Assembly (NCBI GenBank): GCA_051277905.1
Contig: JBNMQI010000001.1
Location: 1-60,810, forward strand
Reading direction: 5' to 3'
From: Gammaproteobacteria bacterium
GTDB taxonomy: Bacteria; Pseudomonadota; Gammaproteobacteria; GCA-001735895
DNA length: 60,810 bases
The notes under the pieces: model-generated
What the model was told of the DNA's origin: nothing
The model's database searches: none
What the model saw: only the letters and a program-made list of their open reading frames with translations
Made by a program: the position numbers and the translations under genes
Part shown: positions 5,935 through 53,162 of the stretch, in pieces
How the letters are laid out: each line of letters begins with the position of its first letter
Numbering within the stretch: position 1 is the stretch's first letter

Positions 5935-6261
5935 AGCGCGCTCCGTAAGTAAGAAAACCAATCGATAATAAAAGACATCACATCCGCGATCCGTTTTGGG
6001 CGATACAAAAATTGATCATACCACTTCTATACACTGGCTAGTGGAGGTCTTGCAGGTCGACTGCGCAAGTATGCTCGCAACTGAGTGTAGATAGGCTATG
6101 TTCAATAGCGGTAGCGTGACCGTCATATGCGCCTGCGAGGTGCATATCAGATTAGGTATGCAAAATTACTATCGCATCTATAAATATAATTAAGTTTTTA
6201 AATAGATCGAGACGCCTATTATGGAGTCACAAGAACACATGATTTAACCCGTTAGACGTAA

Positions 6262-8463
<2,202 letters not shown>

Positions 8464-17253: not shown

Positions 17254-17451
17254 GGCACCGGTTCCTTTCGTTGGTGGCGTTGCTTTGAGTTATGTTGGCA
17301 CAAGTGGAAAAGGTTTGGGGTGAGCTAGATCAAGGGATGGGGGCGAATTAGATTTGAACGGTCTCAATAATCGTTCAGATCGCATACATTGGAATAAAAG
17401 GATTTTAAAGGGTATCTCGTAAGTGCTTACTTACTGTAGATGTCTTGCAGA

Positions 17452-17500
17452 GATGGCCCGCCCGGCAGAATTCGAATCTGCGACCTCTGCCTCCGGAGGG
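17452..17500 (-). repeat. att repeat (left): displaced copy of the 3' 47 nt of tRNA-Arg(CCG) plus 2 nt
   Basis: Identical at 49/49 positions to 53084-53132 by manual alignment. It lacks the 5' 30 nt of the tRNA. Confidence 0.95.
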
Positions 17501-17639
17501 TAATTCATTATAATATACTAAACTACATCCTATTGAATTAAAAGAACTTTTTAGAAAAATATTTCGCCATATGTGACGTCATTTAAGGGTAATTGATAGT
17601 CTTTTGTGTCACATAATTCCGCCCCTATGATTTTGTATT

Positions 17640-18764
17640 TTGACCTCTGCCGCCAGAAAAATTCATTCTGGCGGCAGTAAAAATTACTATGTCGACAGTG
17701 TTGTAATTGAGCAGCGGAGTCAGAGAATTAGGTGTGTTGCATTTAATGGCTTAATTTCAGAAAACAACCTCAGCCCTACCGACGAAGCAAGAAAGTACCT
17801 CTACGCCTTTGTAACAGAAGTGCTGATGAATCCAGCACATGCGGGATTGAAAGAGAAGCTTGCTTCAGAACTAGTGGAAAACTTTTTAGTTGTGCTTAAC
17901 GAAGTTCGGGGAGATCTATCTAAATATGCCCGTGTAACAGATCAACCTGAGCTTGCACGCTACTTCACTCGCGCAATTGAAGCTCTAAATAAGAATGTCG
18001 ATGAGGGGGTTGATAACCTCGCGGATCTGAAGTTTACCTCTGGGCCATTAAAGGTACTGGTCTCGGTGTATGGTGCCGGTGGCATTGATGCGGTGAAAGG
18101 TCTGAGAAATATGAAAGGGTCCAGAAAAGAAGCATTGAACCTATCGTTTGAAGTTACGCTCAGCTACCTAGAAAAAATAGATTACTCGAAGTTCGATGAT
18201 GCAGATCTCGAAGCGATTGGTACGGTCTTCAAGAGATTCGGAGGCAATATCAACGAATCCCAGGGCGCCATTGGTGAAATGCTTACGGTGTTTGCCATGC
18301 AGAAACTTGGGAAGACCGTCTCCAGAATTCAGGAAAGAATTCCAATCACTGGGCCGGGTGGTAAAGTATATGCCCACCGCGTTTCTGATATGTTTATCGA
18401 TGGAGTCTTCGCGGATGTGAAGACCGTGACACCAGAAGGGCTTGCCAAGCTGATGCAGTTTGGTACGCGCCCCGGGGCGGTGATTGAGGACAGCCTTAAG
18501 AAGTCAGGTCAGTTGTTTCGTGATCTGATTGATATGGGAAATAATCCTGACACTAGGAAAATCCTCGTTCTTCCCCCTCATGCTAAAGATCGCGTGAGTG
18601 AAGTTAAAAATGCGATTTTTAATGGCGCGGGGTCGCCGGGTACGAGAAATGAGCTTATGAAAATGTGGGGCCTTGATCCAGGTGACGCAAAGCAAGTCGA
18701 GATATTCGAAACAAAGTTAGAATCTCTAAAAATCAATTTCGAAGTAGTGGTGTTGGACGTATGA
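17640..18764 (+). CDS. Hypothetical protein with C-terminal PD-(D/E)xK-like nuclease signature (putative toxin/effector module)
   Basis: ..QGAIGEML.. then ..VSDMFIDGVFADVK.. (E / D-x9-D-x-K). The track start is TTG, and the first in-frame ATG is at 17826. A hairpin at 17647-17677 lies in the annotated 5' end, so the start is uncertain. Confidence 0.65.
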   Translation: MTSAARKIHSGGSKNYYVDSVVIEQRSQRIRCVAFNGLISENNLSPTDEARKYLYAFVTEVLMNPAHAGLKEKLASELVENFLVVLNEVRGDLSKYARVTDQPELARYFTRAIEALNKNVDEGVDNLADLKFTSGPLKVLVSVYGAGGIDAVKGLRNMKGSRKEALNLSFEVTLSYLEKIDYSKFDDADLEAIGTVFKRFGGNINESQGAIGEMLTVFAMQKLGKTVSRIQERIPITGPGGKVYAHRVSDMFIDGVFADVKTVTPEGLAKLMQFGTRPGAVIEDSLKKSGQLFRDLIDMGNNPDTRKILVLPPHAKDRVSEVKNAIFNGAGSPGTRNELMKMWGLDPGDAKQVEIFETKLESLKINFEVVVLDV

Positions 18765-20140
18765 TTTTTTCAAGTTTTATATCAAGAGTATCGGTTAATT
18801 TATATCGTGAAGAAATCTATATCACCTCTGGTGATATCTATCGCACAGAAAGCTTTTCAATTCATACCGTTATGCCAATTGACAGATACTTGTTCAGCTG
18901 GAATCCGTACTCTTCCGGAAATTATTCTCTCGGTTTTTTAGCTAGTGATAGATCTGGAGGAGATATCTATTCGATAGAATCCAATGAATGGATTAGCAGT
19001 TTTTTACTGTTTCAACTTGATTCGTTTGCCAATTTTTCTATGGAGCCTATCCTGCTCGAGGGTGAGTACTTATATAACATTATGAGATCGAGTGAAGACT
19101 CCACAATAGAGATTACTTTGCCATCTTTTTGGGGTGATAATTATATTGTGACCTTTTATAAAGACAGGAGTGGTAACTTTAGCGATCGTTCTAAAAGATA
19201 CACTGAGATTAGCTTTAGGTCTCTTGATTTGAATGTGATTTGGACGAATTCAGATTATAAATCGGCCTCGTACGGGTCTTCAGGAGATCAACGTTTTTCT
19301 GGTGTTTATGACTTTAATAACTTTATTTGCATAGATAATCATAGTGTTATTTTCGCCCTTGATAAATCCGATGGTAAGGAAGTCTGGCGTTTTGCGCCAG
19401 AAGGGGCTCGTAGCTTTGATGCTTACAATCTTGTCAGTGATGACCTGATTCTGTTTGTAGCAATGAAAACTATTTATCTGCTTAACCCTGAAAATGGTGC
19501 AGTCCTCAATCAAATCGATTTTTCAGAGAAATACAACTATCTGAGAGCGGAATACGACGGCGAATACATTTACATTTTTATCAATGATTCACCGCAGATT
19601 CTGGTGTACGACAAAACATGCTCGACGCTGATTAATCGCATTGATATTCCCGAACCCTACCAATTTATGGCGTTAGAAGTGCCGCATCTGGTCGATGGCG
19701 TTCTCTATGCGTCGCTTAACTGCGCTACCCGTACCTACAACGCCTTAATGACTCTGACTAAAGATGAGTTGCTGGGGAAGACCCCTCTAACCATTGAGTA
19801 TGAAGCACGACCAGAGACCGAAGTCGAATGTGTGAAAAACTCGGATGACTCCGACCACTACGTAGTGACGGTGACGGGTGATAAGCCCGATTGGGTATTC
19901 CGCTATGCCGGAGTCGCGGCGATGGATGTTGTGGCCAAGTACGGCACAGCACCGGTACCCTCGCCAGAATTGAATCAGGACTTTAATGGGTTAATTAAGA
20001 TCCGCATTGGTGGATTGCCGGAAGAAGATCGCACCGATGAGTTCCTTGAGCGTCTTGCTTTTCAGATCGGTAAATCAGCGGCAGACCAACACCACCGAGC
20101 AGGCATCCATAAAATCCGCGCTGAGTGTGAATGGGTATAA
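18761..20140 (+). CDS. Large partner protein 1 (paralogue family, beta-propeller-like repeats inferred)
   Basis: ATGA overlap with the upstream stop. Shares ..LDKSDGKEVWRF.. / ..LNPENGAVL.. repeats and the C-terminal ..PLTIEYE.. region with the 20777 and 22712 products. Confidence 0.8.
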   Translation: MIFSSFISRVSVNLYREEIYITSGDIYRTESFSIHTVMPIDRYLFSWNPYSSGNYSLGFLASDRSGGDIYSIESNEWISSFLLFQLDSFANFSMEPILLEGEYLYNIMRSSEDSTIEITLPSFWGDNYIVTFYKDRSGNFSDRSKRYTEISFRSLDLNVIWTNSDYKSASYGSSGDQRFSGVYDFNNFICIDNHSVIFALDKSDGKEVWRFAPEGARSFDAYNLVSDDLILFVAMKTIYLLNPENGAVLNQIDFSEKYNYLRAEYDGEYIYIFINDSPQILVYDKTCSTLINRIDIPEPYQFMALEVPHLVDGVLYASLNCATRTYNALMTLTKDELLGKTPLTIEYEARPETEVECVKNSDDSDHYVVTVTGDKPDWVFRYAGVAAMDVVAKYGTAPVPSPELNQDFNGLIKIRIGGLPEEDRTDEFLERLAFQIGKSAADQHHRAGIHKIRAECEWV

Positions 20141-20155
20141 TTAAAGGATTAATAA

Positions 20156-20722
20156 ATGTCTGAATTGTCTCTGTCAGCACGAATGACGTTTTCAACACTC
20201 GAAACAGCGGTGGCAGTTAAACATTTATTTCGGCAATGGAATGACAGTGGCAGCTTGCTGGCTGCCTTACTAAAAGAATTCGCAGAGCGAATCCCTCAAG
20301 TAACAGAACTCGGAAAACAACTGGATGCTCTGTTGCAAGAGTTCAAAGAGTCAGACGAGATACGGCTCAGAAACGTTAGTCTGACCTTTATCGGAAATCG
20401 CGATACTCGTTTTTATTACAAATTTTCGCCAGACGACTACACCATCGCAATGCGGTTCACTAATATTGTCATTGAGTGGGTTGCGTCCTTGCCAGCTACC
20501 GAGCAAGTCGTATTAATGACTATCGGCGATGAATATGATTTTACGGTGTACGAGCACGGTAAAACATACAGTGCTGATACCGGTGGTGAACCTAGTTTTT
20601 ATGATTGGATCATGGCGCAGTCTGATGGCGAGCTTCCCGGTGAATCATTTGACCTCCCTATTTGGTACAAAACCTACGAAAAAGACCTTGAAGTAGCGAA
20701 AGTCGCGCTAAGACTTAGTTGA
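20156..20722 (+). CDS. Hypothetical protein (188 aa)
   Basis: ATG at 20156 lies 15 nt after the upstream stop, with AAAGGA upstream. No motif recognised. Confidence 0.6.
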   Translation: MSELSLSARMTFSTLETAVAVKHLFRQWNDSGSLLAALLKEFAERIPQVTELGKQLDALLQEFKESDEIRLRNVSLTFIGNRDTRFYYKFSPDDYTIAMRFTNIVIEWVASLPATEQVVLMTIGDEYDFTVYEHGKTYSADTGGEPSFYDWIMAQSDGELPGESFDLPIWYKTYEKDLEVAKVALRLS

Positions 20723-20777
20723 TCAAGAATTTTTCGATATGGTGGGTGATTTGTACATAGAAATAAGTGATATTTAA
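20712..20777 (+). pseudogene. Vestigial 3' end of a nuclease-module gene (about 21 codons)
   Basis: The frame reads DLVDQEFFDMVGDLYIEISDI*, versus ..NLDKTDEFIKEVMNNFDIKISDI* at 22644-22712. The 22 nt AAATAAGTGATATTTAATGAAA at 20761-20782 are identical to 22696-22717. Confidence 0.55.
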
Positions 20778-22237
20778 TGAAAGCTATTTATTTATCTAAT
20801 GAGCGCGATGAACGTTCTAGGCTAGAAGAAGAGAGTTTGATTTTTGGTGGCCATACTTATGCCTTGAAAGTATGGCGCGATCAACTTAGTTACAACCTGA
20901 TGTCGTATTTACCTGAGTTGGGTTTTCATCGTTGGCGAGAGTCGCCCGCCGGTGATCGATGTTTTTTATCCACAGAGATAACTATGAAGGGAGTCACTGA
21001 GAGTAACGAACTCAGGGTTTATAATGAGGCGTTTGAGCCTTCGACTTATTTCGGCATAGAGTGCGCTAAAAACAACCTCTGGAGTGTCGGCGATATGTAT
21101 ATATCGGATGAGGAAACCACAGACGAATCATATAAAACTATCCATTTTGCCAGATTTTATACCGAACATTCGCATGACCCCTTTTATGAAATCATTGATC
21201 TTTTATCATGTGCTCAACGATATGAGTGCCAGACGCTATTAATTTTCAATAGTTCACGGACACTTATATCTCTTAACGATGATATGACGATTGGGTGGCA
21301 ACGGGTATTTCCTCAAGTGAATGGTTATTTTAAAGGTGATTTTTTTAAGTATAAGAATAATTTTATTGTAAGCGCAGGAACTATGACAGGCCAAGATCAT
21401 AGTGGCCAGCTACTGTACTTAGATGCCGACACCGGTGCTACACTGTGGCAGCGAGATCTTCCATTCAGTATTTATTTTTGTACGATGGTTGGTGATCGAG
21501 TTTACTTATCAAGTCAATGTGATTGGCACTGGTGTGTATTATGCGCCGATACCGGCGACATACTATTGCAAGACAGCTATGTGATTAAACATGAAATGGA
21601 TACAATGGGCTGGCTGTGGGGCGACAGTGGGTATATTTTTTTAAGCTATGGGGAGAATATTCTTCGGATAATGGATGAAGTGACCGGTGAAATCGTGCAA
21701 GACGTACCTATCCCCGAAGACTTTAGTTTGAGTAATACGTCCCACCCTATCGTAAATGATGATTTTATTTATATCCGATTAAGCAATGGGGGGGGGATCG
21801 AAAAAATACATACCTATGGTGGTGTCATAATTTTGCCACGTGAGGAGCTCAAACAAGGCTTTCCACTGACCATTGAAGTTGAAGACAAAGGGGATATTAG
21901 CCATCAAGCCATTGCCGATGGAAAAACTGAATACTACGAAATTACTGCCTCCTATGAAGAGCTTGGCGATGTACTGCGTTTTGGTCAGATAGAAATAAAA
22001 CTTGTTGCCCATCGTTTCGCTTACCATCAGCTAGGAAATTTAGATAATGACTGGAAAACCCGCATTAATAAAAAATTCGATGGACGCATGGTATTTAATG
22101 TCGATAAAGCCAAACTAAAGAACCCTGACGACAGCAAGTTTGATTTGATGGTCGAACTGTTCAATAAACACTTTGCCGAAAAATTCCGCGCCCCAGCGAA
22201 TAAAAAGCCGTTGACGATTGAGTGGCGGTATATTTGA
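20777..22237 (+). CDS. Large partner protein 2 (paralogue family)
   Basis: 486 aa. TAATG coupling to the remnant upstream. ..LDADTGATLWQRDLPF.. and ..CADTGDILLQD.. repeats. The C-terminal 157 aa are nearly identical to the 22712 product. Confidence 0.85.
   Translation: MKAIYLSNERDERSRLEEESLIFGGHTYALKVWRDQLSYNLMSYLPELGFHRWRESPAGDRCFLSTEITMKGVTESNELRVYNEAFEPSTYFGIECAKNNLWSVGDMYISDEETTDESYKTIHFARFYTEHSHDPFYEIIDLLSCAQRYECQTLLIFNSSRTLISLNDDMTIGWQRVFPQVNGYFKGDFFKYKNNFIVSAGTMTGQDHSGQLLYLDADTGATLWQRDLPFSIYFCTMVGDRVYLSSQCDWHWCVLCADTGDILLQDSYVIKHEMDTMGWLWGDSGYIFLSYGENILRIMDEVTGEIVQDVPIPEDFSLSNTSHPIVNDDFIYIRLSNGGGIEKIHTYGGVIILPREELKQGFPLTIEVEDKGDISHQAIADGKTEYYEITASYEELGDVLRFGQIEIKLVAHRFAYHQLGNLDNDWKTRINKKFDGRMVFNVDKAKLKNPDDSKFDLMVELFNKHFAEKFRAPANKKPLTIEWRYI
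21767..22237 (+). repeat. Copy A of 471-bp near-identical direct repeat (3' ends of partner genes 2 and 3)
   Basis: Aligns without gaps to 23699-24169 (offset 1932). Only 6 differences in the last 187 nt by manual alignment. Confidence 0.85.
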
Positions 22238-22256
22238 TTAAGGGGATGATTCATAG

Positions 22257-22712
22257 ATTCGGGGAAAGGAAAAAGCTTACCTAGATGAGCTAGCCAGTAT
22301 TCAAACGACCGTTAAGATTGGGCCAGAAAGCTTTAAGCAATCCCGTATTTATGACTATATCTTGAAAGATGGTTGGCACGTTGATAAAAAAGCGTGGTCA
22401 GTCTCCAATATTCAGAAATACCTGAAGGGTTCGGCTAAAGGCGATATTCTAATCTCGGGTGAAGAAAGCACAGGCCAGCTGTTTCGTGATTTGGTTGCAG
22501 CGGGTAATGGAACTAAAATTCGCTGGAGTTTTGATGCACGGGCAGGGGAGTTAGGTGTGGATAAAATTAAGGAGCTAGTTAGGCAAGGGCTTAAAGAAAA
22601 CATTGATGATATAGCTCAGGTTGCTAAAAAAGATATTAGCAACCTTGATAAAACCGATGAATTCATTAAAGAAGTAATGAATAATTTTGATATTAAAATA
22701 AGTGATATTTAA
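22257..22712 (+). pseudogene. Orphan C-terminal nuclease module (no ATG; TTG at 22362 in track)
   Basis: The open frame from 22257 aligns with the last about 150 aa of the 17640 product: RIYDYILKDGWHVDKK vs RVSDMFIDGVFADVK, TGQLFRDLV vs SGQLFRDLI. The upstream helical/E-motif part is absent. Confidence 0.6.
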
Positions 22713-24169
22713 TGAAATTTATTTATGTTTCGGATGAAGTTGATGAAAAGTCTTACCCTTGTAGTTTGAATCTTGTTTTTCGCGGATATACGTACTCTAT
22801 CGAAGTAGAAAAAGATAGCTATAGTTATAACTTTTCCAGTTATATGCCAGAGCATCGTCTCGGACCATGGTTGGACTCTCCTGAGGGATCTGTTGTTTTG
22901 GTTTCAAAAGATATTGGAATTGAACCAAAATACTTTTTTGTTGAGAAAAACGTTTATGGAAGAGACTTCGAGCCAACTGAGTACTTTGGTAGTAAAAGTG
23001 TGAACAGGGAGGGGAATAAATTTGGAGATTTATGCGTTATTAATGAAGAATCATCTGTAGCTGGTGAGTACATTCTTAGGGTGTATCGTAACTTAAATGC
23101 CCCGTGCCTTTTTGAACTTAATGTAGGGTTAGTGAATGCTTGTACGGTGGTTGATGATAATCTTATTATTCTAACGAAATACCCCCGTGGAATTCTAAGT
23201 CTAGATTCTTCATTTGTCATAAACTGGAAAAAAGAATTTCAGAATGCCAATCCCAGGCATGCCGATATCGCTTTCTTTCAGTATGAAAACAGTGCGATTG
23301 CTAGCTTAGGAAGCACCCATCGTGACGCTGGCGATGGGCAAATTATCTCCGTTGACACTAAAAATGGAGACACACTATGGCTTCGAGATATCCCGTTTGT
23401 TGTTGACTACTGCACACTTGTTGGTGATCGTATTTACCTCTCTGGTCGAGACGATTGGCAATGGTACATATTAAGCGCAGATACCGGTGAAATATTACTT
23501 GAGGATTCAATCAATTTTGAAGACGAAGATGCAGATTTAGGGCGTTTATGGTCGCATGATGGTTTTCTCTTTCTTTATCTAAGATATAACGTATTGCGCA
23601 TTATGGATGAAACGACGGGGAGAGTTCTTCAGGATATCCCAATACCAGAGGAGTTTATCTTATCTCTGGGGTTCTACCCCGAGGTCATTGGTGATTACAT
23701 CTATATCCGGTTAAGCAATGGGGGTGGCATCGAAAAAATGTCTACTTACGGGGGCGTCATGATTTTGCCACGTGAGGAACTCAAACAAGGCTTTCCTCTT
23801 AGTATTGAAGTCGAAGACAAAGGCGATATTAGCCATCAAGCCATTGCAGATGGAAAAACAGAATACTACGAAATTACCGCCTCCTATGAAGAGCTTGGCG
23901 ATGTATTGCGTTTTGGTCAGATAGAAGTAAAACTCGTTGCGCAACGTTTTGCTTATAACCATTGGGGAAACCTAGACGATAACTGGAAAACTCGCATTAA
24001 TAAAAAATTCGATGGACGCATGGTATTTAATGTCGATAAAGCCAAACTAAAGAACCCTGATGACAGCAAGTTTGATCTGATGGTCGAATTGTTCAATAAA
24101 CACTTTGCCGAAAAATTCCGCGCCCCAGCGAATAAAAAGCCGCTGACGATTGAGTGGCGGTATATTTAA
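22712..24169 (+). CDS. Large partner protein 3 (paralogue family)
   Basis: 485 aa. The ATG overlaps the TAA of the orphan module. Co-linear with the 20777 product. Confidence 0.85.
   Translation: MKFIYVSDEVDEKSYPCSLNLVFRGYTYSIEVEKDSYSYNFSSYMPEHRLGPWLDSPEGSVVLVSKDIGIEPKYFFVEKNVYGRDFEPTEYFGSKSVNREGNKFGDLCVINEESSVAGEYILRVYRNLNAPCLFELNVGLVNACTVVDDNLIILTKYPRGILSLDSSFVINWKKEFQNANPRHADIAFFQYENSAIASLGSTHRDAGDGQIISVDTKNGDTLWLRDIPFVVDYCTLVGDRIYLSGRDDWQWYILSADTGEILLEDSINFEDEDADLGRLWSHDGFLFLYLRYNVLRIMDETTGRVLQDIPIPEEFILSLGFYPEVIGDYIYIRLSNGGGIEKMSTYGGVMILPREELKQGFPLSIEVEDKGDISHQAIADGKTEYYEITASYEELGDVLRFGQIEVKLVAQRFAYNHWGNLDDNWKTRINKKFDGRMVFNVDKAKLKNPDDSKFDLMVELFNKHFAEKFRAPANKKPLTIEWRYI
23699..24169 (+). 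repeat. Copy B of 471-bp near-identical direct repeat
   Basis: See 21767-22237. Confidence 0.85.
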
Positions 24170-24187: not shown

Positions 24188-24637
24188 ATGGATGATCAAC
24201 GCGAACAGATCAAACAACTATTTATTGGTATGCCATTCGCGCTACTGCGTTGGGTAACACTGGCAGACGGCAATACCCTGGATAGAGCGACAAAGGTAAC
24301 CTTTGTTACTGTCATCAGTCGTGAGCCACACAAGACAGTAATCGGGTCTTCCTGGCAAGAGGTCAACCCAGAGGTTGGTGATGGATTGTTAGGATCTGAT
24401 GCTGAGGACCTTTCAGCGTTATTTCAGGCGTTTGTTGGTATCTCAGAAGTCATTGCCGGAGATAAAGAGAGCGGTGAAGGATTACGTAAAGCGCTCTTCG
24501 ATTTTGCCTACGATCTGGCTCTGGAGTTGGCCGAGCTTCCAAAAGAGGCAAGTGACTCTGAGCTACCTGATATTCAGAGGCTGTGTCTTCATGCACTCCT
24601 AGACCTGTTTGCATTATCGGAGAATGTCACGGAGTAA
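24188..24637 (+). CDS. Hypothetical acidic protein (149 aa)
   Basis: ATG preceded by AAGAGGA. No motif recognised. Confidence 0.55.
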   Translation: MDDQREQIKQLFIGMPFALLRWVTLADGNTLDRATKVTFVTVISREPHKTVIGSSWQEVNPEVGDGLLGSDAEDLSALFQAFVGISEVIAGDKESGEGLRKALFDFAYDLALELAELPKEASDSELPDIQRLCLHALLDLFALSENVTE

Positions 24638-24742
24638 AACGTTTTTTACAAGGAAACCGTTAAAAAATTTGATATCGATCCGGGTCGTCAGATTTGAGTA
24701 CTTAAATTCTCGGGTGAAGAAGCATTCCATCATTATTTTCAA

Positions 24743-25858
24743 GTGAATGGGTATTCTTCCGGCGAGCAAAATGACTTCTCTTCAGGTGACCAAGCAGGCC
24801 CGCTAAGACACCGCCCCAACCGTTACGTACCGGTAAAAGTGCCACTGTATGACGAACAAGGCACCATTAACGACCAAATAGCCGTTGCTAATAGCGATGA
24901 CGACAGGCTAACAAAAGCCGATGTTGATGCACGCTTTGGCTGGGTCTACCGCCCAGAACTCAGCTTCAGCATGATTGACCTTATGGTCAGCGAAATAAAC
25001 GAAGAGGATTTACTCAACCCGAGCAACACCATCAACCTGCTGAACGAAAAATCCCCCGTGATTAGCAGTACCGCCGATCTGGTTAAAGTGATTTTTAATT
25101 TAATTGGCTCAGAATACGAACGCATCACCTCGCTTGATGGCGAGCAGCAATACATCTTCGCCCTTGGTGATCAAGAAATCGAAGTCACACTGGATAAAGG
25201 CAAAGACGGAAGTGAAGAACAACAAATCAGTTTCAGCAATCTTGAATACCTCAGTGAACTCGAAGTAGAGGATTACCTGACGTTGAGTTTGTATTTAAAT
25301 CAAGATGCACAGAATACGCTTTGGGAGTGGGCTTTCACCACGCTAGATGTCGATATCGACTCAGACAATAACAATGGCTTTGAATCGCCTGATAGAACCC
25401 CAGAAGAAGAAAACATAGAAAAAACTCAACAACACACCGGTAAGCGCATTCGAGTCAACACCGGAGATATTAACAACAATGATATTCCCGACTTTGCAGA
25501 ATTTGACTATCTAGATGAAACCGGTGCGCGCATAGGTAAACCCTTTGTGCCTTTTGTGGTTGAAATCCCGCCCGAAGTGCCCATCGTTAGAGCGACACTC
25601 AGTTTTCAATATAGCGGTTCAGATCCCCTTGGCGTCACCAGTATTGACGACCCTGATAATGAAGGCAAAAAAATCTACACCCGCTTCTACGACGACCGCG
25701 AACGCGACCAACCCATCGAAGACTTAGAACGTCAGTTCACCACACCAGAATGGGAAGTAGCCATGTTTGACTGCGATGATGAGGCGTTATTGAAACTCAC
25801 AGAAGCGCTAACGGATGCATGGGGCCATGCTTTGAAGGACGGTAATCTTCCGGAGTAA
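24743..25858 (+). CDS. Hypothetical acidic protein (371 aa), start uncertain
   Basis: GTG start without an obvious RBS. The frame is open from 24698 with no ATG until residue about 85. Contains an Asp/Asn-rich ..DVDIDSDNNNGFESPD..GDINNNDIPDF.. segment. Confidence 0.5.
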   Translation: MNGYSSGEQNDFSSGDQAGPLRHRPNRYVPVKVPLYDEQGTINDQIAVANSDDDRLTKADVDARFGWVYRPELSFSMIDLMVSEINEEDLLNPSNTINLLNEKSPVISSTADLVKVIFNLIGSEYERITSLDGEQQYIFALGDQEIEVTLDKGKDGSEEQQISFSNLEYLSELEVEDYLTLSLYLNQDAQNTLWEWAFTTLDVDIDSDNNNGFESPDRTPEEENIEKTQQHTGKRIRVNTGDINNNDIPDFAEFDYLDETGARIGKPFVPFVVEIPPEVPIVRATLSFQYSGSDPLGVTSIDDPDNEGKKIYTRFYDDRERDQPIEDLERQFTTPEWEVAMFDCDDEALLKLTEALTDAWGHALKDGNLPE

Positions 25859-29776: not shown

Positions 29777-29796
29777 GGTCTGTTGCATACAAACAG
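29777..29796 (+). promoter_or_regulatory. GGTCTGTTGC..ACAAACA motif, copy 2
   Basis: See 29603-29626. Confidence 0.3.
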
Positions 29797-29806
29797 AGGC
29801 ACGGAA

Positions 29807-31975
29807 ATGAATAAATTTTTAGAAATGCTGAATCCGCCAGATGGGCAACCGGGGCTGAATCAGGTTCGGGCGAACGTTGGTCGAATTGTGAATCCGGACA
29901 ATCCGTTGGCTGGAAAAATCAGCGAGGCGCTGATTGAAATCGCAAATTCTGAGATTCGCGGGTCGGGCTGGCATGAGGATTATGCGGTCATCGCAGATCG
30001 ACGATTTTACGGGCTGATCGTCAAACACCAGATATGGGCGGCGCTATATACGGATAACCGGCATCGAGAAATTATTCGTCAACTGCAAAACATAATGATT
30101 TTAGCAATCGATTTAATTGAAAACGACAAATTAAAAGCGATTGAACTCGATCCGTTACAAAAAATTCCTGAGCATGATATTGCTGGACTAGGATCGCTGA
30201 TACGAAAAATCGCAAAAAAACCAGACGATTATAAAGAAATTTCTTTGATTAATAATCTATTGGATTTATTGGAAGGGAGGGAACATCAACGACATGATTT
30301 TTACATGCTGATGAGATTTATAAAAATTTTAGATGGCGTGAATGTCAGTCGTCATCATAAAAAAGAGCTAGAAAAATCAAATCGGGTTGGAAATGGTCGT
30401 GATGGAATCAAAAAATATTTTTTTGGTACGAGAATACAGCTAACACCCGATGATCCGGATGATCTAAATGCTCTTCCAGCAATTCATGAGATTTTGCCGA
30501 ACGATGAACATCGAAAAACTAATTTGTACATTGATCCCGCAGAAGAAGATTTAGGTGGTCAGGTATTAATATATCGAGAGAAATTAAAAGCGCTGTCAGT
30601 AGAATTTAAAATAGGACATCGTAAAACCGAGGCTAGTCGCGCGATACTCGCTAGATATAATTCTGCACCACCAATTACAAACCGACAGCTAACTGATACA
30701 GAATTAATTAAATTGTGGCGATACATACAGCGAACAAAAAATCATGAATCACACATGGCAAATAAACGGGTGGGGATGATTCTGGAGGTGATGTTGCTGA
30801 CGTCAAGCTCATATGAAAATGCTATATCAATGCTAACAGAGGAACAAGATTCTCCAATAAAATTCGTTCAATCTAAAAATGAATTTCGGATAGATCGAAT
30901 ACGACCGGAATATAGAACCAACTCATTAGGTGTGAGAAATAGAATTACCGATAATTTATTGCAGTCGAGAGACTACGTTTCAATTCCAAATTATTGTAAT
31001 TTAAATAATTTTAAAGAGATTTTTGGAGGGGTAGATAAATTAGAGTTGAAAAAAAATGTTAAAGAAATTATTTTAATTCTTGGTGATAGAATAACACTAT
31101 CGAAAATTTCTAGACAAGTTTTTGAAATTGCACGATCATCGTATGATCCAGTCATTGTTCAAACAACATTCGGAATTAGGGTGTCATCAGCTACAGTACA
31201 AATGTTTTATACGGCAGTTTCGGGTAAGCAGGTATCTGATTGTTATACTGAATCGGCGAATGAATTTTTGAGACGCGTTGGAGCAGATTGTGTAAATCAT
31301 CAGCGATACGATCCCGGGTATTATTCGCCAAGAAACACACCAGAAATTGATGATTTTAAAAATATTTTTAATAGTATTCATCAGCAAATCGTCTTGAGTA
31401 ATGAGAATTTTTATAGGCTGCATAATTTGAATACCCTACTATGTGTTTTATGCCAATCGGTGTTTACGACAATACGAGGCATCTACGATCCAATGGTAGA
31501 GGTTGATGATTATAAATGTGCAGTTTTTTATAGAGATAAAGACCGCCAAGATTTTTCCAATTCGCGATTTCAATTTGTGCATCCGATGGCAATTCGAATT
31601 TCAGAATATTATTTATCGGTACGGAAAAATTCGATTGATACGCTGAATCTAGATGAAATTGATACATTCACATTTTTAGTATCTGATGATGGAAGATTGA
31701 TAACACCTAGACCACAAAATATACAAAAGTTTCTCGATGAATTTACGCAATATCCAATAAACTCAATCAGAAAACTCATCAGAACCCAGTTTGTTGAACG
31801 TTGTGTATCGTATGACTCGATCAATATGATTATGAATCACAATTCTCAGGGAGAGGCAGTATGGGATAAATATTCAACCGTTTCTCCAATAGATATTCAC
31901 AACGAATTAAAAATTGAATTTGATAAATTAATTGAAGATTTAGGAATTCAGGAGGATTGGTTTAATGCTGTCTGA
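29807..31975 (+). CDS. Large divergent tyrosine-recombinase-like protein (about 722 aa)
   Basis: AT-rich gene. The C-terminal third has a degenerate R..K..(H)xxR..H..Y layout (..FTTIRGIYD.., ..INSIRKLIRTQF.., ..MNHNSQGEAVWDKYS..). Start set at the first ATG (the track uses TTG 29783). 11-nt overlap with the next gene. Confidence 0.6.
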   Translation: MNKFLEMLNPPDGQPGLNQVRANVGRIVNPDNPLAGKISEALIEIANSEIRGSGWHEDYAVIADRRFYGLIVKHQIWAALYTDNRHREIIRQLQNIMILAIDLIENDKLKAIELDPLQKIPEHDIAGLGSLIRKIAKKPDDYKEISLINNLLDLLEGREHQRHDFYMLMRFIKILDGVNVSRHHKKELEKSNRVGNGRDGIKKYFFGTRIQLTPDDPDDLNALPAIHEILPNDEHRKTNLYIDPAEEDLGGQVLIYREKLKALSVEFKIGHRKTEASRAILARYNSAPPITNRQLTDTELIKLWRYIQRTKNHESHMANKRVGMILEVMLLTSSSYENAISMLTEEQDSPIKFVQSKNEFRIDRIRPEYRTNSLGVRNRITDNLLQSRDYVSIPNYCNLNNFKEIFGGVDKLELKKNVKEIILILGDRITLSKISRQVFEIARSSYDPVIVQTTFGIRVSSATVQMFYTAVSGKQVSDCYTESANEFLRRVGADCVNHQRYDPGYYSPRNTPEIDDFKNIFNSIHQQIVLSNENFYRLHNLNTLLCVLCQSVFTTIRGIYDPMVEVDDYKCAVFYRDKDRQDFSNSRFQFVHPMAIRISEYYLSVRKNSIDTLNLDEIDTFTFLVSDDGRLITPRPQNIQKFLDEFTQYPINSIRKLIRTQFVERCVSYDSINMIMNHNSQGEAVWDKYSTVSPIDIHNELKIEFDKLIEDLGIQEDWFNAV

Positions 31976-34508
31976 TCTAGCAGAGGAAGTTTTGAGCGAT
32001 TCTGGTGTTGATTTGAATGCTAACGATCACATTGAATCACATGTTTTTTTACTGATAATAGAGAAACTCCGCGCCCGGGTGGGTGCGGAGATGGTTGACG
32101 CGACACTGGATGAAATTATCAAATATTTTTTTGATACAGAACGAACCTCGCAAGACGATCTTAGTCGAATTGCTAAGATTGCTCGCCCAGCAGCACCTGT
32201 AACACCAGAGAATTTAGCGGGGTATCAGGAACTACTGAAATTCGATAAAATTTTTATAAATTTAATAAAATCTGCTCAGGCAGATGATTTCATCGGGTTA
32301 ATAACCTACAGTGCGATTCGGTATGGATTACTACTCGATGATAATTTGATTTGTAGTTGGTATGATCAAAATTGGTTAACAAATTTACGCCGAGTCAATG
32401 ATGAATACTGGTTTGTTTTAAATAAACCTAAGCAAAAAATTGGAATGGTATGGACGCCTGATAACTTCACGCTCGCACTGATTAGTAAGTTTCATGATCG
32501 TTTTAAAAAAAATAATAAATGGTTTTTTAATATTAAAAAATTATTAGATAAACACATGGATTCATCTGGATTGAATACCAAAAATAAATTTTTATCGGCA
32601 ATGAAAGCTCTTCTGCATAATTATTATCCAGGATTCATTATAGAGAGTTTATCTAATCGTAAAAATAATAGAGGGCTAAGCGAGATCGGTCATATTCGTA
32701 GAATAACCCGTCTAGTTCCACCTAATGCTAAGGTCAAAAAAAGAAATTGTTCAAAGAAAAGCCGAAAAAATTCTAAGGGCAAATCGCTTCGTATAATCAC
32801 CGATTCACTCAAAGTTGTGAGTAGCTCGGATGAATTTTTAGAAAAAATTAAGCATGTGGAATTTTCACCAGTAGTTAAGTTGATTATAGATTGTTCTGTT
32901 TTTTATGCGAATAATGAAACTGAGGCTGGAACAAAATTGAAAATTTCAGCGATCTATCGAATAATTAATGATTTGACAGATCGTTTTACTGGTGAGTTTA
33001 AAGATCAAGATTTGCAATTTTTACCAGATGAGGAATTGTTAGATAGATTCAAGCAAGTAATTTTAAATTCTAAAGAACACTCGAAGTTTAACATTCAGAA
33101 ATCGATTAATTATTTTTTATGGTTTTTGCATAATTATCAAAATCGACCAAGATTTTCAATAAATATCGTTATAAGTAGAAAATCTGAACCTCACCCAGTT
33201 ATGATTTTTCCATGGGAATATTCTCATGTCCATAAAGTGCTTAAAAACGAGTTGAGAATGGAGCTATCTGATGATAAAAAAATTCTTATAAATTTTGCTC
33301 GAATGGCCTTAATACTCGGATATCGATTAGGGCTACGACGTGGTGAAATACAGAATATCAGATTGTGTGATTTTCATATGAATGGTTTTCCAATGTTAGT
33401 TGTAACACCCTATGAAGACAAGACTCAAAAATCTATTCATTCAAATAGAAATATTGCTATTGGCGGACGATTTAGTTCTGATGAAATGATATTTTTAAAT
33501 GAATTTCTCGAATGGAGAAGGAAAAACTCAAAATCTAATGAAGATTTATTTCTAGACTGGGATTCTGAATTTTCGATTGTAACGAATCGGAATAAAATCT
33601 TCCTTTATTTGTCTACAGCTTTTAGGATGATAACCTCAGATCCAATCTGTGCATTTCATACATTAAGGCACAGTTTTGCTAGCAATAACATGTTCTATTT
33701 ACAACTACGGAATGATGAATCAATTATAGAGAATAATTTTCTTGGTTTGGATGTTGAGCAAATTAATGAATTTAAAAACTATTATGATCGAGTTAAAACT
33801 CTGTCTGGTGGGACTCGAGTATTCAACCCATTGCATCAATTATCAATGGAATTGGGACATGCCTCACCTGAAACCACACTCAGAAATTATGTTCATTCTA
33901 TTGATTTGATACTATCTAATTATCAGTCACGGCTATCGCCTGAATTGAGTACATTAGGGTTGGCGGATTTGTTTGATGTCGATAGAACCTCTATACAGAA
34001 AAAATTTAAATCTAATTCTGATGATCATTTACGTCCTAGTATTATTTATCGTGATTTCACACATAAAAAATTGAAAAAACTTGTTGAATCAGTTGATATT
34101 GATTCATGGAGATCTGTAGAAGACTCTTATCATTGTTTAAATCTGACTAAGCCGTTGCATGGATTCGACGGGTTTTTGAATGATTTGAAAAAATTTGATT
34201 GTAAAAAAATAACATTACGTCAATTATTAATGCGATACCCTGAACTAAGAAAGATTCGGAAAGATTTTTTATTGGACAAGGCGCTATATGATTTCCTAGT
34301 CAAGCATAATCTAATTAAATCTAAAGATTTACTGGATTCCATGATAGAGAATTTATCAAAATTGGCTGATTACGATCAGAGGTGTCGATATAAACGCTGG
34401 TGTACTCTGAGAAGGCATGCCGAGAATATAACTCTGGAAAATAACGCTAAGATAAAAAATACTCGCGGAGGGCAAGCGTTGGTGTATCTGATCAAGAGTC
34501 TAGGATGA
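31965..34508 (+). CDS. Large tyrosine recombinase (847 aa)
   Basis: Canonical catalytic motifs in the C-terminal half: ..LGLRRGEIQNIRLCDF.. (R), ..KTQKSIHSNRNIAI.. (K), ..HTLRHSFAS.. (HxxR), ..LGHASPETTLRNYVH.. (H..Y). Confidence 0.85.
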   Translation: MLSDLAEEVLSDSGVDLNANDHIESHVFLLIIEKLRARVGAEMVDATLDEIIKYFFDTERTSQDDLSRIAKIARPAAPVTPENLAGYQELLKFDKIFINLIKSAQADDFIGLITYSAIRYGLLLDDNLICSWYDQNWLTNLRRVNDEYWFVLNKPKQKIGMVWTPDNFTLALISKFHDRFKKNNKWFFNIKKLLDKHMDSSGLNTKNKFLSAMKALLHNYYPGFIIESLSNRKNNRGLSEIGHIRRITRLVPPNAKVKKRNCSKKSRKNSKGKSLRIITDSLKVVSSSDEFLEKIKHVEFSPVVKLIIDCSVFYANNETEAGTKLKISAIYRIINDLTDRFTGEFKDQDLQFLPDEELLDRFKQVILNSKEHSKFNIQKSINYFLWFLHNYQNRPRFSINIVISRKSEPHPVMIFPWEYSHVHKVLKNELRMELSDDKKILINFARMALILGYRLGLRRGEIQNIRLCDFHMNGFPMLVVTPYEDKTQKSIHSNRNIAIGGRFSSDEMIFLNEFLEWRRKNSKSNEDLFLDWDSEFSIVTNRNKIFLYLSTAFRMITSDPICAFHTLRHSFASNNMFYLQLRNDESIIENNFLGLDVEQINEFKNYYDRVKTLSGGTRVFNPLHQLSMELGHASPETTLRNYVHSIDLILSNYQSRLSPELSTLGLADLFDVDRTSIQKKFKSNSDDHLRPSIIYRDFTHKKLKKLVESVDIDSWRSVEDSYHCLNLTKPLHGFDGFLNDLKKFDCKKITLRQLLMRYPELRKIRKDFLLDKALYDFLVKHNLIKSKDLLDSMIENLSKLADYDQRCRYKRWCTLRRHAENITLENNAKIKNTRGGQALVYLIKSLG

Positions 34509-38629: not shown

Positions 38630-40210
38630 ATGACAAGCTTGCAACAACGTGCCGAACTTCAACGCCAAATCTGGGCGATTGCCAACGATGTGCGTGGCTC
38701 AGTGGATGGCTGGGATTTTAAACAATATGTACTGGGAACGCTGTTCTACCGTTTTATCAGTGAAAACTTTGAAGCCTACATCACAGGCGGTGATGAAAGT
38801 GTTAATTATGCGGCCATGTGTGACGATGACGAAAACATCACGTTTGCTAAAGAGGATGCCATTCGTACAAAAGGCTATTTTCTTTACCCTAGCCAGTTGT
38901 TTAGCAATGTGGCGGCTAATGCACACAAAAACGAAAATTTAAATACGGATTTGGCGGCTATTTTTGCTGCAATCGAAAACTCAGCCAATGGCTATGATTC
39001 AGAAAAAGACATCAAAGGCTTGTTTGCGGATTTTGATACCACCAGTAATCGTCTGGGTAATACGGTAGAGGCAAAAAACAAACGCTTAGCCGCTGTGTTA
39101 AAAGGCGTGGCAGGTTTAACCTTCGGTAATTTTGAAGACAACCAAATTGATTTATTCGGTGATGCCTACGAGTTCCTGATTTCAAACTATGCCGCCAATG
39201 CGGGTAAATCCGGTGGCGAATTTTTTACCCCTCAGCACGTATCAAAATTGATTGCCCAACTCGCTATGCACGGCCAAACCAGCGTCAATAAAATCTATGA
39301 CCCTGCGGCGGGTTCGGGCTCTTTGCTGTTACAAGCCAAGAAACACTTTGATGCGCATATCATTGAAGATGGTTTTTTTGGCCAAGAGCTCAACCACACC
39401 ACCTACAACTTAGCGCGTATGAATATGTTTTTGCACAACATTAACTACGACAAGTTTAATATTCAGTTGGGTGATACCTTAACCGAACCGCACTTTTTAG
39501 ATGACAAACCCTTTGATGCTATTGTCTCTAACCCGCCTTATTCGGTGAAATGGATTGGTAGCGACGACCCAACCTTAATCAACGACGACCGCTTTGCGCC
39601 CGCTGGCGTACTTGCGCCTAAATCAAAAGCCGACTTTGCCTTCGTGCTGCATGCCCTAAGTTACCTATCAAGCAAAGGCCGCGCTGCAATTGTTTGTTTC
39701 CCCGGTATTTTTTACCGTGGCGGCGCTGAGCAAAAAATTCGCCAATATCTGGTTGATAACAACTATGTTGAAACAGTGATTTCATTGGCTCCTAACCTGT
39801 TCTTTGGCACCACTATTGCCGTGAATATTTTGGTGCTGTCTAAACACAAAACCGACACCACCACCCAGTTTATCGATGCCAGCGGTTTGTTTAAAAAAGA
39901 AACCAATAACAACGTTTTAACGGACAACGAAGACGAAAAAAATCCGGGTCATATTCAGCAAATTATGAAGGCGTTCGCCAGCAAAGAGAACGTGGATCAC
40001 TTTGCTAAATCGGTTGATTTGGACGTCATAGCAGGCAACAGCTACAACCTTTCGGTGAGCAGTTATGTAGAAGCGAAAGACAACCGCGAGCTAGTGGACA
40101 TTACAGAGCTTAATGCCGAACTTAAAACTACTGTCGCTAAAATTGATGCGCTTCGTAGTGATATTGATGCCATTGTTGCAGAGATTGAAGGTGAGGAGCT
40201 TGAAGCATGA
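38630..40210 (+). CDS. hsdM: Type I restriction-modification system, DNA methyltransferase subunit M
   Basis: 526 aa with an HsdM N-terminal domain (..[10 protein letters not shown]..), motif [11 protein letters not shown] and motif [12 protein letters not shown]. Confidence 0.95.
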
Positions 40211-41457
40211 ATCATTTGAGTTACATGGAAAAACTGCTAGATGGGGTTGAGGTTGAGTGGAAAAAGTTAGCTGATATTTTTCAGCTTAAGAATGGATATA
40301 CACCATCAAAATCAAAAAAAGAATTCTGGGAAAATGGAACTGTTCCATGGTTTAGAATGGACGATATCCGAGAAAATGGTCAAATTCTGGATGAATCGCT
40401 ACAGAAAGTCTCAGAGAGTGCAATCAAAGGTGGAAAGCTATTTCCTGAAAATTCAATAATAATTGCCACATCAGCAACTATTGGAGAGCACGCTTTGATT
40501 CGTGTTCCATTTTTAGCAAATCAGAGATTTACTAATTTGAGTTTAAAGCCAGTATATAAAGACACATTTAACAACAAGTTTATTTTCTACTACTGCTTTA
40601 TGTTGGCGGATTGGTGTAAAAAAAACACAACCATGTCTAGCTTTGCATCTGTTGATATGGATGGATTTAAAAAATATCCTTTCCCAATTCCATGCCCGAA
40701 TGATCCAAAAAAATCCCTGGAAATCCAGGCCGAAATAGTGCGCATTCTGGACGCATTTACCGCCATGACCGCCGAGCTGACCGCCGAGCTGACCGCCGAG
40801 CTTAACATGCGGAAAAAACAATACAACTACTACCGCGACCAGTTGTTAAGTGCTGAAAATGAAGGAGTAGAATGGAAAACATTAGAGCATATTTGTACCT
40901 CTATATCTGCTGGCGGAGATGTACCTAAAAATAGTTCTAAAGGTCAGACTGAGCCTACCGACGAATACCCATATCCAATTTATGCAAACGCTACAGGCGA
41001 AAAAGGATTATATGGTTTCACTGATGACTATAAAATTGACAGCGATGCAGTAACCATTTCTGCGCGTGGAGCAAAAGTCGGATACCACACTGTTCGAGAA
41101 GCTAAGTTCACACCAATTATTCGTCTAATTGTTTTAATAGCCAACAAAAATATAGTTAGTACGAGATATTTAAACTATGTTTTAGATATGACTCCCATTG
41201 GTGGTACTGAGGCTGGGATCCCGCAACTTACAGTTCCAATGGTCAAAAAGCTCACAGTTCCAATTCCTTTTCCAAATGACCCAAAAAAATCACTTATTGA
41301 GCAGGCTCGAATAGTTTCTATTTTGGATAAGTTCGACACCTTAACCACTTCGATCCAAGAAGGTCTCCCCCGCGAAATCGAGTTACGTCAAAAGCAATAC
41401 GAATACTACCACGACTTACTGTTGAACTTCCCCAAACCTATGGAGGAAACAGCGTAA
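40207..41457 (+). CDS. hsdS: Type I (IC family-like) specificity subunit S
   Basis: Two target recognition domains separated by conserved regions: ..[46 protein letters not shown].. and ..[52 protein letters not shown] overlap with hsdM. Confidence 0.93.
40768..40803 (+). repeat. Three tandem 12-bp repeats ACCGCCGAGCT(G/T) encoding TAEL x3 in the hsdS central conserved region
   Basis: ACCGCCGAGCTG ACCGCCGAGCTG ACCGCCGAGCTT, preceded by a partial ACCGCCATG. Confidence 0.95.
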
Positions 41458-43056: not shown

Positions 43057-43334
43057 GTAAACCTAACAAAACACACCTAACTAACATTCGCTCATCGGCT
43101 GCCGAGTATCTAACTTTTATCGCCGCAACCGGCGAAGGCGGTATTGAAGCGATTTATGCCGACGAGGATATTTGGTTAAGCCAAAAAATGATGGGCGTGT
43201 TGTACGATGTAGAAACTAATACCATTAACTATCATCTTAAAAAAATTTTTTCCGACAGTGAATTAGAAGAAAATTCAGTTATTCGAGATTTTCGAATAAC
43301 TGGCCGTGATGGTAACCATAAGGAGGCAGCTTAA
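43053..43334 (+). CDS. RhuM-family N-terminal fragment (93 aa; probably truncated)
   Basis: ..[48 protein letters not shown].. matches the start of RhuM-family proteins (about 330 aa as I recall). ATGA overlap upstream and TAATG overlap downstream. Confidence 0.6.
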
Positions 43335-44311: not shown

Positions 44312-44374
44312 TGCGACGCCGTGGCTATTGCCATATTGGAAAACACCACGGCTAACAAAAAAGGATGTAAACGA

Positions 44375-47300: not shown

Positions 47301-47524
47301 CTGATGCCATTATTGCCTCTGAAAAGCTCAATATCGATGCTGCCAAACGCTATATTGCCTCATCACTCAAACGTGAGTACGCCTCTGAAAATGGCACTGC
47401 ACTTAATGAGGCGCTGCCCAAACTTAGCCCATTGAGCCCACAGTACCGAACCCAGAAGCAAACAGTTTTTCAGAAAATTGCCGCTTTTGTTGAGAAGTTT
47501 AAAGGTGTGGGTGGGCAGTTATAA
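44375..47524 (+). CDS. hsdR: Type I restriction enzyme, R subunit
   Basis: ..[12 protein letters not shown].. (Walker A), ..[10 protein letters not shown].. (DEAH-type motif II), ..FLTGFDAP.. and ..QAFSRTNR.. helicase motifs. Start set at ATG 44375 (AAGGA upstream) rather than GTG 44321. Confidence 0.94.
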
Positions 47525-53039: not shown

Positions 53040-53083
53040 GCTAAGATTTTGTAAGTGGTCACTTACTTGGCAGGCCTTACACT

Positions 53084-53162
<79 letters not shown>

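Follow-up and report, generated by a model that had tools for sequence, protein, structure and literature searches.

Why would a bacterial genome carry a nuclease-like open reading frame (ORF) followed by two shorter versions of its end, each joined to a large paralogous partner gene? This question is raised by the + strand at 17.45–25.9 kb in a 60,810-nucleotide stretch of contig JBNMQI010000001.1 (the window, by which we mean that whole stretch). The initial annotation of this DNA offered two answers, a toxin/immunity family with displaced orphan cassettes or an intracellular nuclease-plus-sensor defence pair. The cluster is a real feature and not a chance one, and we consider it likely to be an array of orphan toxin tips and immunity genes from a family of giant exported toxins that has not been described before. 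The first of the two answers is supported by giant proteins in relatives that end in the toxin domain and by the position of the partner gene beside them. The exact array proteins occur in metagenome-assembled genomes (MAGs) of Thalassolituus/Oceanospirillaceae and in assemblies of marine metagenomes, in every case under the label hypothetical, and we infer that the host is a Thalassolituus-like Oceanospirillaceae bacterium.

Eight ORFs make up the + strand between 17.6 and 25.9 kb: 17640–18764, 18761–20140, 20156–20722, 20777–22237, 22257–22712, 22712–24169, 24188–24637 and 24743–25858. Three of them are the partner genes, and each overlaps the end of the toxin frame that precedes it. From the coordinates and the sequence, the overlap is 4 nt at 18761–18764 and 1 nt at 20777 and at 22712, in agreement with the translational coupling to paralogous genes that was first described at 18761, 20777 and 22712. 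The ORFs at 20156–20722 (188 aa), 24188–24637 and 24743–25858 were absent from that description.

Evidence for our reading comes from relatives elsewhere. We placed the toxin domain with an exhaustive hidden Markov model (HMM) search of 1.84 billion representatives and found that giant proteins end in it, with a linker of ~190 residues ahead of it. Residues 1570–2067 of P0138 (2071 aa) match residues 114–609 of the query with E=2e-146, and the further giants matched were P0141 (2085 aa), P0168 (2197 aa), P0249 (2180 aa) and P0267 (2166 aa). These five are given as 2,056–2,197 aa, the range across relatives is 2,050–2,550 aa, and fragments of 871–1355 aa were likewise matched in the HMM search. 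A giant is built from a body of ~1,500 aa, a hydrophobic linker of ~190 aa and a toxin domain of ~310 aa, and several giants have weak Big (bacterial Ig-like) and LamG/ConA-like lectin domains. The N-terminus of P0138, the only giant for which we read it, is a Sec-type signal peptide (MKRILILALWWLASSVYA). The giants are distributed over marine Gammaproteobacteria (Oceanospirillaceae and others) and Desulfobacterales. The linker (P0138 ~1556–1700; alignments A9/A10) joins the LamG-like region to the toxin domain and has invariant cysteines and an equally invariant G-D-x-R-D motif (C..GD.RD), followed by glycine-rich hydrophobic segments. Its role may lie in cleavage or in translocation across a membrane. 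The tips in the window do not have this linker.

The partner gene lies directly after a full-length giant gene in three MAGs of other lineages. In the Desulfobacterales MAG (L017), a giant ORF of up to 2551 aa contains the toxin domain with an hhalign probability of 99.2 and is followed by a 462-aa partner that is above the Pfam cut-off for PQQ_2 and matches the second partner of the window with a BLASTP E=4e-15. The second MAG (L015, Enterobacterales by its record) has a 2161-aa giant (toxin domain probability 98.1) and a 506-aa partner (96.1). The third, a Desulfobacteraceae MAG (L018), has a giant gene and then a 463-aa partner (99.4), and farther downstream a 181-aa orphan tip with a 479-aa partner (98.4), which is the classical main-plus-orphan arrangement of polymorphic toxin loci. 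The partner is found immediately 3' of the tip and on the same strand in the window, in these three MAGs and in the loci L001, L002 and L012. With respect to the neighbourhood census that had been proposed as a check, homologues are fused to giant proteins, with a signal peptide in P0138, or lie next to giant genes outside islands. Two further loci vary this pattern. L010 has a partner and a 196-aa gene without a toxin, located between core genes. In L012 the cassette of tip, partner and 185-aa gene has ParE-family toxin genes on either side (L012:3036–3498 and 6173–6725), one with a ParD antitoxin and the other with a TraY-like gene, so the context is mobile or rich in addiction modules.

Because the domain ends giant proteins in relatives, we read all three toxin modules of the window as 3' fragments, of ~340, 21 and 151 codons. 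The first of these had been called full, which did not survive closer comparison. Orphan toxin tip 1 covers ~340 codons at 17745–18764 (+) inside the mechanical ORF 17640–18764 (374 aa), which opens on a TTG immediately after a stop codon. Homology to full-length relatives begins only at codon 36 (NGLISENNLSPTDEARKY, nt 17745; compared with the 613-aa P0004). A perfect 12-bp inverted repeat with a 7-nt loop lies at 17647–17677 (codons 3–13), and because this hairpin sits within the first 13 codons, the sequence suggests that the first stretch of the ORF may be non-coding island-end DNA. There is no promoter-like site on the + strand in 17300–17640. A candidate internal start is M63 at 17826, and another annotation calls a protein of 312 aa from there. 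Tip 1 comprises the whole toxin domain with which a giant toxin ends, and the carrier is missing. Close homologues of the 374-aa protein are few, only four in an index of 5.8 billion proteins. P0004 itself was ruled out as a complete protein. It is a chimeric orphan whose first 100 aa match residues 201–286 of an unrelated ~325-aa family, its ORF opens after a stop at a contig edge, and its sequence from residue 114 corresponds to that of the giants from residue 1570.

The other two tips are shorter. Vestigial toxin tip 2, at 20712–20777 (+), consists of the last 21 codons only, ending in DQEFFDMVGDLYIEISDI before the stop. It shares sequence, in a different frame, with the 3' end of the 188-aa gene, and is the mark of a displacement junction. 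The 64 nt over the tip 2 stop and the partner 2 start are 77% identical to 22684–22747, and inside them lies the run of 22 identical nt that was originally reported between this remnant and the end of the third tip. Orphan toxin tip 3, at 22257–22712 (+), has 151 codons without an ATG and starts just upstream of the R..D strand. Its reported alignment with the 374-aa protein was reproduced with BLASTP (E=3e-6) over the D..DxK..GQLFRDL core (RIYDYILKDGWHVDKK...GQLFRDLV), and a whole-library search assigned tip 3 to the same toxin family, as a different subtype. Similar remnants exist in other loci. L012 has a 149-codon orphan tip that is cut at the same place as tip 3, and in L001 a 36-codon vestige, comparable to tip 2, precedes the second partner.

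A fragment of the giant toxin body is present as well, at 24659–25858 (+), with homology over 24659–25351 and a called ORF at 24743–25858 (371 aa). The first 230 aa of this ORF are 46% identical to P0138 residues 680–912 (BLASTP E=9e-59), and tblastn with the L015 giant gives E=9e-36 at 24659–25351, which means that the homology begins upstream of the called start. Because this body piece is present too, we regard the cluster as a collection of fragments from giant-toxin loci and not as a self-contained operon. The ~140 last codons (25352–25858) are unrelated to the giant body and have a faint match to the Tis1 immunity family (E=0.066); judging from the sequence, they may be a further fused remnant. 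The initial annotation had seen no trafficking domain in the window, and this was borne out, as Pfam and NCBIfam found no trafficking module in the window proteins. The domain is missing here because only the 3' tips of giants are present.

A comparison with L002, a locus from the window's own lineage, indicates how tips and partners may be matched. The DNA of the window and of L002 is ~99% identical from the attachment site (att) to ~18260, falls to 45–60% over 18625–19450, which covers the toxin's last codons and the partner's first ~230 codons, and is back to 96–100% past 19630. From the sequences, this difference appears to be a swapped specificity cassette with breakpoints inside both genes. 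Since the end of the toxin and the start of the partner vary together, we predict an interface between them, and the pattern points to a contact between the C-terminal part of the toxin and the N-terminal blades of the partner.

Partner 1 (18761–20140, +, 459 aa) is the predicted cognate immunity protein of tip 1, whose stop it overlaps by ATGA. Partner 2 (20777–22237, +, 486 aa), the one matched by the L017 partner, and partner 3 (22712–24169, +, 485 aa) are predicted immunity paralogues. The last third of partner 3 resembles that of partner 2: the two proteins are 18–44% identical in the N-terminal part and 78–100% identical in the C-terminal third (~170 aa), with the final ~50 aa identical. 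Partner 1 has ~21% identity to each of the others, and all three are paralogous. The same gradient is seen across 15 partner homologues, where the N-terminal third is hypervariable and the remainder strongly conserved. The partner family is rare, with only 13 hits.

The partners had been described as unusually large and propeller-like, and both descriptions turned out to be right. A profile of the three window partners matches BamB structures in the PDB with E=2.7e-6. In Pfam, the window partners fall below the PQQ_2 cut-off whereas the L017 partner is above it, and over the eight cluster proteins Pfam and NCBIfam gave weak PQQ_2/BamB signals for the partners and nothing else. We modelled partner 1 with AlphaFold2 (AF2) from 15 sequences, with a predicted local distance difference test score (pLDDT) of 74 and a predicted TM-score (pTM) of 0.71. 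The model is an all-beta propeller at residues ~1–333, followed by a beta-beta-alpha-beta-alpha-beta C-terminal domain. The best Foldseek matches are tetrathionate hydrolase and BamB (E ~1e-10, probability 1.0), with TM-scores of only 0.3–0.5. Because propellers of 462, 463 and 506 aa directly follow full-length toxin genes, the large size of the partner is a conserved family trait. We read no hydrophobic signal-like N-terminus in any partner sequence, and for this reason the partners are probably cytoplasmic.

The 188-aa gene (20156–20722, +) recurs with type-1 partners. Its homologues, 38–41% identical, directly follow the partners in L012 and L010, and we therefore assign it to the type-1 cassette. 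There is no counterpart after the L017 partner. The protein has no match in Pfam, NCBIfam or the PDB and no relative of solved structure; it could be a third component of the cassette, for instance a chaperone or some accessory factor, or else a second immunity protein. Membership in the array is uncertain for the 149-aa ORF at 24188–24637 (+), which has no Pfam, NCBIfam or PADLOC match and aligns weakly to the 188-aa family (24%, with large gaps).

What kind of toxin the tip might be is a separate question. The initial annotation had pointed to an E / D..DxK pattern of the restriction-endonuclease kind in the 374-aa product, and we read it there as GAIGE(213)ML and R247-V-S-D250-MFIDGVFA-D259-V-K261; the spacing is D-x8-D-x-K and not the D-x9-D-x-K that was first given. 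Tip 1 has the motif residues E213, R247, D250, D259-x-K261 and G290-Q291..D295. We aligned 16 diverse toxin-domain homologues (alignment A8, in the numbering of the 374-aa protein) and found no variation at R247, D250, K261, G290 and D295 and almost none at Q291. In the local alignments, position 259 is always D or E. The family pattern is R.YD ... (D/E)xK(A/S)W ... GQLxxD, with an upstream helix sqGA..(E/Q) in which the E or Q is found in most members without strict conservation. Across the family the spacing is D-x8-13-(D/E)xK, and a conserved Q-containing helix comes after it. The PD-(D/E)xK superfamily has acidic and lysine residues on consecutive strands with a helix before them, in an alpha-beta-beta-beta-alpha-beta core. 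The AF2 model of the toxin domain, made from 4 sequences, is poor (mean pLDDT 54.6, and below 50 over the core), and its order of secondary structure is helix(E), strand, strand(D), strand(DxK), helices and strand, which fits that core. On these motifs and this order we think that the toxin domain is probably a PD-(D/E)xK nuclease, at the level of motifs.

Searches for a nuclease relative added nothing to the motifs. PDB sequence searches with the 613-aa P0004 and with the toxin-domain profile returned nothing, and the toxin profile, when compared by hhalign with the nuclease domain of the HsdR encoded in the window, reached a probability of 1.4, which is not significant. Matches of the toxin model to G-alpha proteins in Foldseek were disregarded, with TM-scores of 0.1–0.2. 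The proposed check with AF2 and Foldseek gave a propeller for partner 1 and nothing meaningful for a nuclease core in the toxin.

Several points weigh against our reading of the array. The toxicity of the tips, their neutralisation by the partners and the export of the giants are predictions. There is no full-length giant toxin gene within the 60.8-kb window. The giants have no known trafficking domain (two-partner secretion (TPS), RHS/YD, PAAR/VgrG, LXG or MIX) and no secretion system by Pfam or NCBIfam. All eight of the giants that we examined share one tip family with the same invariant residues, which differs from classical polymorphic toxins with their many unrelated folds; we had considered that giants matched only by the linker might carry other toxin folds, and the alignment ruled this out by showing the same tip family throughout. 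As for the nuclease, the label stands as far as motifs go and does not extend to profile or fold. The 16 members have no nuclease match in Pfam, NCBIfam, PHROGs or a PDB profile search, Foldseek against the PDB with the weak AF2 toxin model gave no match at E<=0.001, and the nuclease fold is without statistical support. With such results there is a fair-sized minority chance that the array is what we describe and that its tip is another hydrolase or a non-enzymatic toxin, the motif pattern being coincidental. An upstream helix with E/Q in most members only and an unreliable AF2 core would suit that explanation, as does the lack of any profile or structural match to a nuclease. However, the invariant acidic and lysine residues are on predicted consecutive strands and, together with the Q-helix, give the usual PD-(D/E)xK layout, and a cytoplasmic immunity protein, as the partner is predicted to be, suits a cytoplasmic target.

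The last point to be weighed concerns tip 1, where the domain is intact and M63 is a possible start, making expression inside the cell conceivable. Tip 1 and partner 1, with or without the 188-aa gene, might then be expressed from M63 as an addiction or abortive-infection module of the toxin–antitoxin type, with the other cassettes as decayed copies. Tip 1 does keep every conserved motif residue along with its ATGA overlap with partner 1, and an NCBI-type annotation calls the 312-aa protein from M63. The pair is within 300 nt of the end of an island that has type I restriction-modification (R-M), an AAA_13/Fic insert and CBASS, and ParE/ParD pairs flank the homologous L012 cassette. We nevertheless think such a module improbable, as there is no promoter-like site upstream on the + strand, and the domain elsewhere ends giants (one read as having a signal peptide) or occurs as start-less fragments. 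In L010 the partner without a toxin suits immunity to an incoming toxin better than an addiction pair. Nor did any of the eight cluster proteins match a defence-system component in PADLOC (PADLOC-DB 2.0), a result that bears equally on the other answer offered at the outset, an intracellular anti-phage system whose propeller would detect infection and set the nuclease free, with cassette displacement diversifying the pair. The island is rich in defence genes and the partner is large and built from repeats, like some sensors, which would fit such a system. Yet two of the three nuclease modules, one start-less and one vestigial, cannot be translated as functional proteins, and the domain is the tip of giants of up to ~2,550 aa, presumably exported ones, with a signal peptide on the one N-terminus that was read. 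A toxin end and a partner start that vary together are typical of a tight inhibitor pair, and homologues are found outside islands, beside giant toxin genes. We regard a sensor-type defence system as very improbable, and we came to the conclusion that an orphan tip/immunity array remains the likely reading.

If the cluster is such an array, it has close parallels among known systems. In CdiA-CT/CdiI and Rhs-CT/RhsI (PMC3482391, PMC3967940), as here, a very large exported protein ends in the toxin domain, a coupled immunity gene is directly downstream, and 5'-truncated cassettes of tip and immunity gene are stacked behind. A sharp break in identity at the tip, with tip and immunity gene varying together, is also shared. 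Unlike those systems, the giants here are without TPS/FHA, RHS/YD, PAAR, VgrG or any other known trafficking domain, and the carrier, which has Big and LamG-like domains and, in P0138, a signal peptide, is paired with a second giant upstream. The predicted immunity proteins are beta-propellers of 460–510 aa, and there is one tip family only. Because the trafficking domains are absent, we do not place the system in the CdiA-CT, Rhs-CT or type VI secretion system (T6SS) families. The T6SS immunity arrays of Vibrio cholerae (PMC5361080) likewise have intact immunity genes beside vestigial 3' ends of displaced effectors, with recombination apparently through conserved flanks. In contrast to them, the window has no T6SS genes or markers and no active effector upstream, and the array is located where a tRNA island ends, not beside secretion-system genes.

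Nuclease colicins and S-type pyocins with their Im proteins (PMC12927319) are a further parallel, in that a single toxin family diversifies allelically with a matched downstream immunity protein. In this respect the family described here is closer to them than to CdiA-CT/Rhs-CT. However, its carrier is ~10x larger and unrelated, its partner is ~5x larger than an Im protein and combines a propeller with an alpha/beta domain where Im is a small helical protein, and no similarity can be detected between its toxin domain and the HNH or other nuclease domains of colicins. The partner fold is that of the eight-bladed BamB/PQQ propellers (profile and Foldseek matches above), but the partner differs from BamB in having no lipoprotein signal, an extra C-terminal alpha/beta domain and a different genomic role. 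Zhang et al. 2012 (PMC3482391) stated that beta-propellers had not been found among immunity proteins. Searches of the open-access literature for immunity proteins of the propeller or BamB-like type turned up no later account of the system described here.

From these parallels a working model can be proposed. Incoming cassettes of tip and immunity gene would recombine through the conserved 3' halves of the partners and the 5' regions of the toxins, displacing older tips and leaving truncated remnants. A cytoplasmic partner would bind its toxin tip through the variable N-terminal propeller blades and neutralise it. Intact partner genes would then protect the host from the toxins of its neighbours, and the tips would be a silent store of sequence that could recombine into a full-length gene. 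The toxin itself would most likely be a PD-(D/E)xK-type nuclease that acts in the cytoplasm of the target cell.

The initial annotation had placed the locus at the att end of a defence island, and this was confirmed by a 49-nt direct repeat. The repeat is the 3' part of tRNA-Arg(CCG), with identical copies at 17452–17500 and 53084–53132. The copy at 17452–17500 (-) is the displaced one at the far end of the island, the intact tRNA-Arg is at 53086–53162, and the island bracketed by the repeats is 35.7 kb. L002 and L003 have different DNA on the left side of the repeat, while the stretch from att to the toxin is 98–100% conserved, which is why we believe that the array moves together with the island end. 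It is passenger cargo at the tRNA-distal end, and its location is a matter of hitch-hiking. About 30 nt past the 49-nt repeat are also partly alike (17420–17451 and 53052–53083, TAAGTG.T.ACTTACT), in L002 too, and this similarity suggests that there may have been repeated or tandem integrations at the tRNA-Arg.

The rest of the island has a MerR/cation-efflux/LspA block, an ISL3 transposase and a tyrosine integrase, and its defence content is a type I R-M system with AAA_13/Fic genes and a CBASS pair (HNH-SAVED and CD-NTase). The R-M system is at 38630–47524 (HsdM, HsdS, HsdR), and its hsdS and hsdR are separated by two inserted genes, one for an AAA_13 ATPase (41458–43056) and one for a Fic/DOC protein with a helix-turn-helix domain (43334–44311). 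The CBASS-like pair, in 49903–52921, consists of an HNH-SAVED effector (49903–51057) and a CD-NTase (51050–52240), and is followed by a 226-aa gene that has no Pfam match and adjoins the tRNA-Arg. A low-GC block at 29783–34508 (32–36% compared with ~44%) has two overlapping genes. The 730-aa product has no Pfam match, and the 847-aa product has only a weak tyrosine-recombinase domain in the middle of the protein; the pair may be a separate inserted element or a pair of defence genes.

In the relatives, the genes around the giants are also of interest. A second giant gene lies upstream of the toxin giant, and its C-terminal ~870 aa are conserved in L017, L019, L020 and L021. The upstream giant of L015 has 1917 aa with Big, glucodextranase-B-like and CarboxypepD_reg domains. 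The same operon (L015:7–20891) includes genes for a 773-aa protein, for two peptidyl-prolyl isomerases (PPIases) and for a 935-aa protein that carries an HExxH motif and has an outer-membrane-barrel-like C-terminus ending in F. These genes may be a dedicated export or assembly apparatus.

The ~325-aa family that we met in P0004 (P0005–P0124; L006, L009) is widespread in marine Gammaproteobacteria, an example being P0055, PBPRA2800 of Photobacterium profundum. Its members have a conserved N-terminal part of ~200 aa and a C-terminal glycine-rich transmembrane hairpin, and it is the hairpin region that is fused to the giant-toxin linker in P0004. The gene is translationally coupled to one for a ~125-aa membrane protein, with small ORFs after it, and the two look like an uncharacterised membrane-acting toxin/immunity pair. 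There is no Pfam or NCBIfam family for it, and UniRef gives the names 'channel forming colicins domain' and 'LXG domain'. We rejected the T6SS, LXG or colicin affiliation that such names imply, with no support from Pfam and no secretion genes nearby.

Taken as a type, the locus is familiar. Its toxin tip, propeller partner, 188-aa companion and ~2,100-aa carrier are in no curated family, by which we mean Pfam and NCBIfam, beyond the weak Big and LamG/ConA-like signals in the carrier and the PQQ-type signals in the partner. A fuller picture, in which the downstream one of two adjacent giants ends in the hydrophobic linker and a nuclease-like tip and is delivered without known trafficking domains, the partners are the first family of large propeller immunity proteins, and the blades set specificity, is one that we hold tentatively, at somewhat short of an even chance. 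One practical lesson for annotation is that nuclease-like ORFs borne on islands should not be taken as defence genes. Should the partner prove to be an immunity protein, the immunity folds would gain a large propeller scaffold, and the swapped segment of toxin end and partner start would be a natural experiment on specificity. The giant carriers would offer a new entry point to toxin delivery without type V secretion system (T5SS), T6SS or Rhs machinery in marine bacteria, and their parent system may represent a new delivery route.

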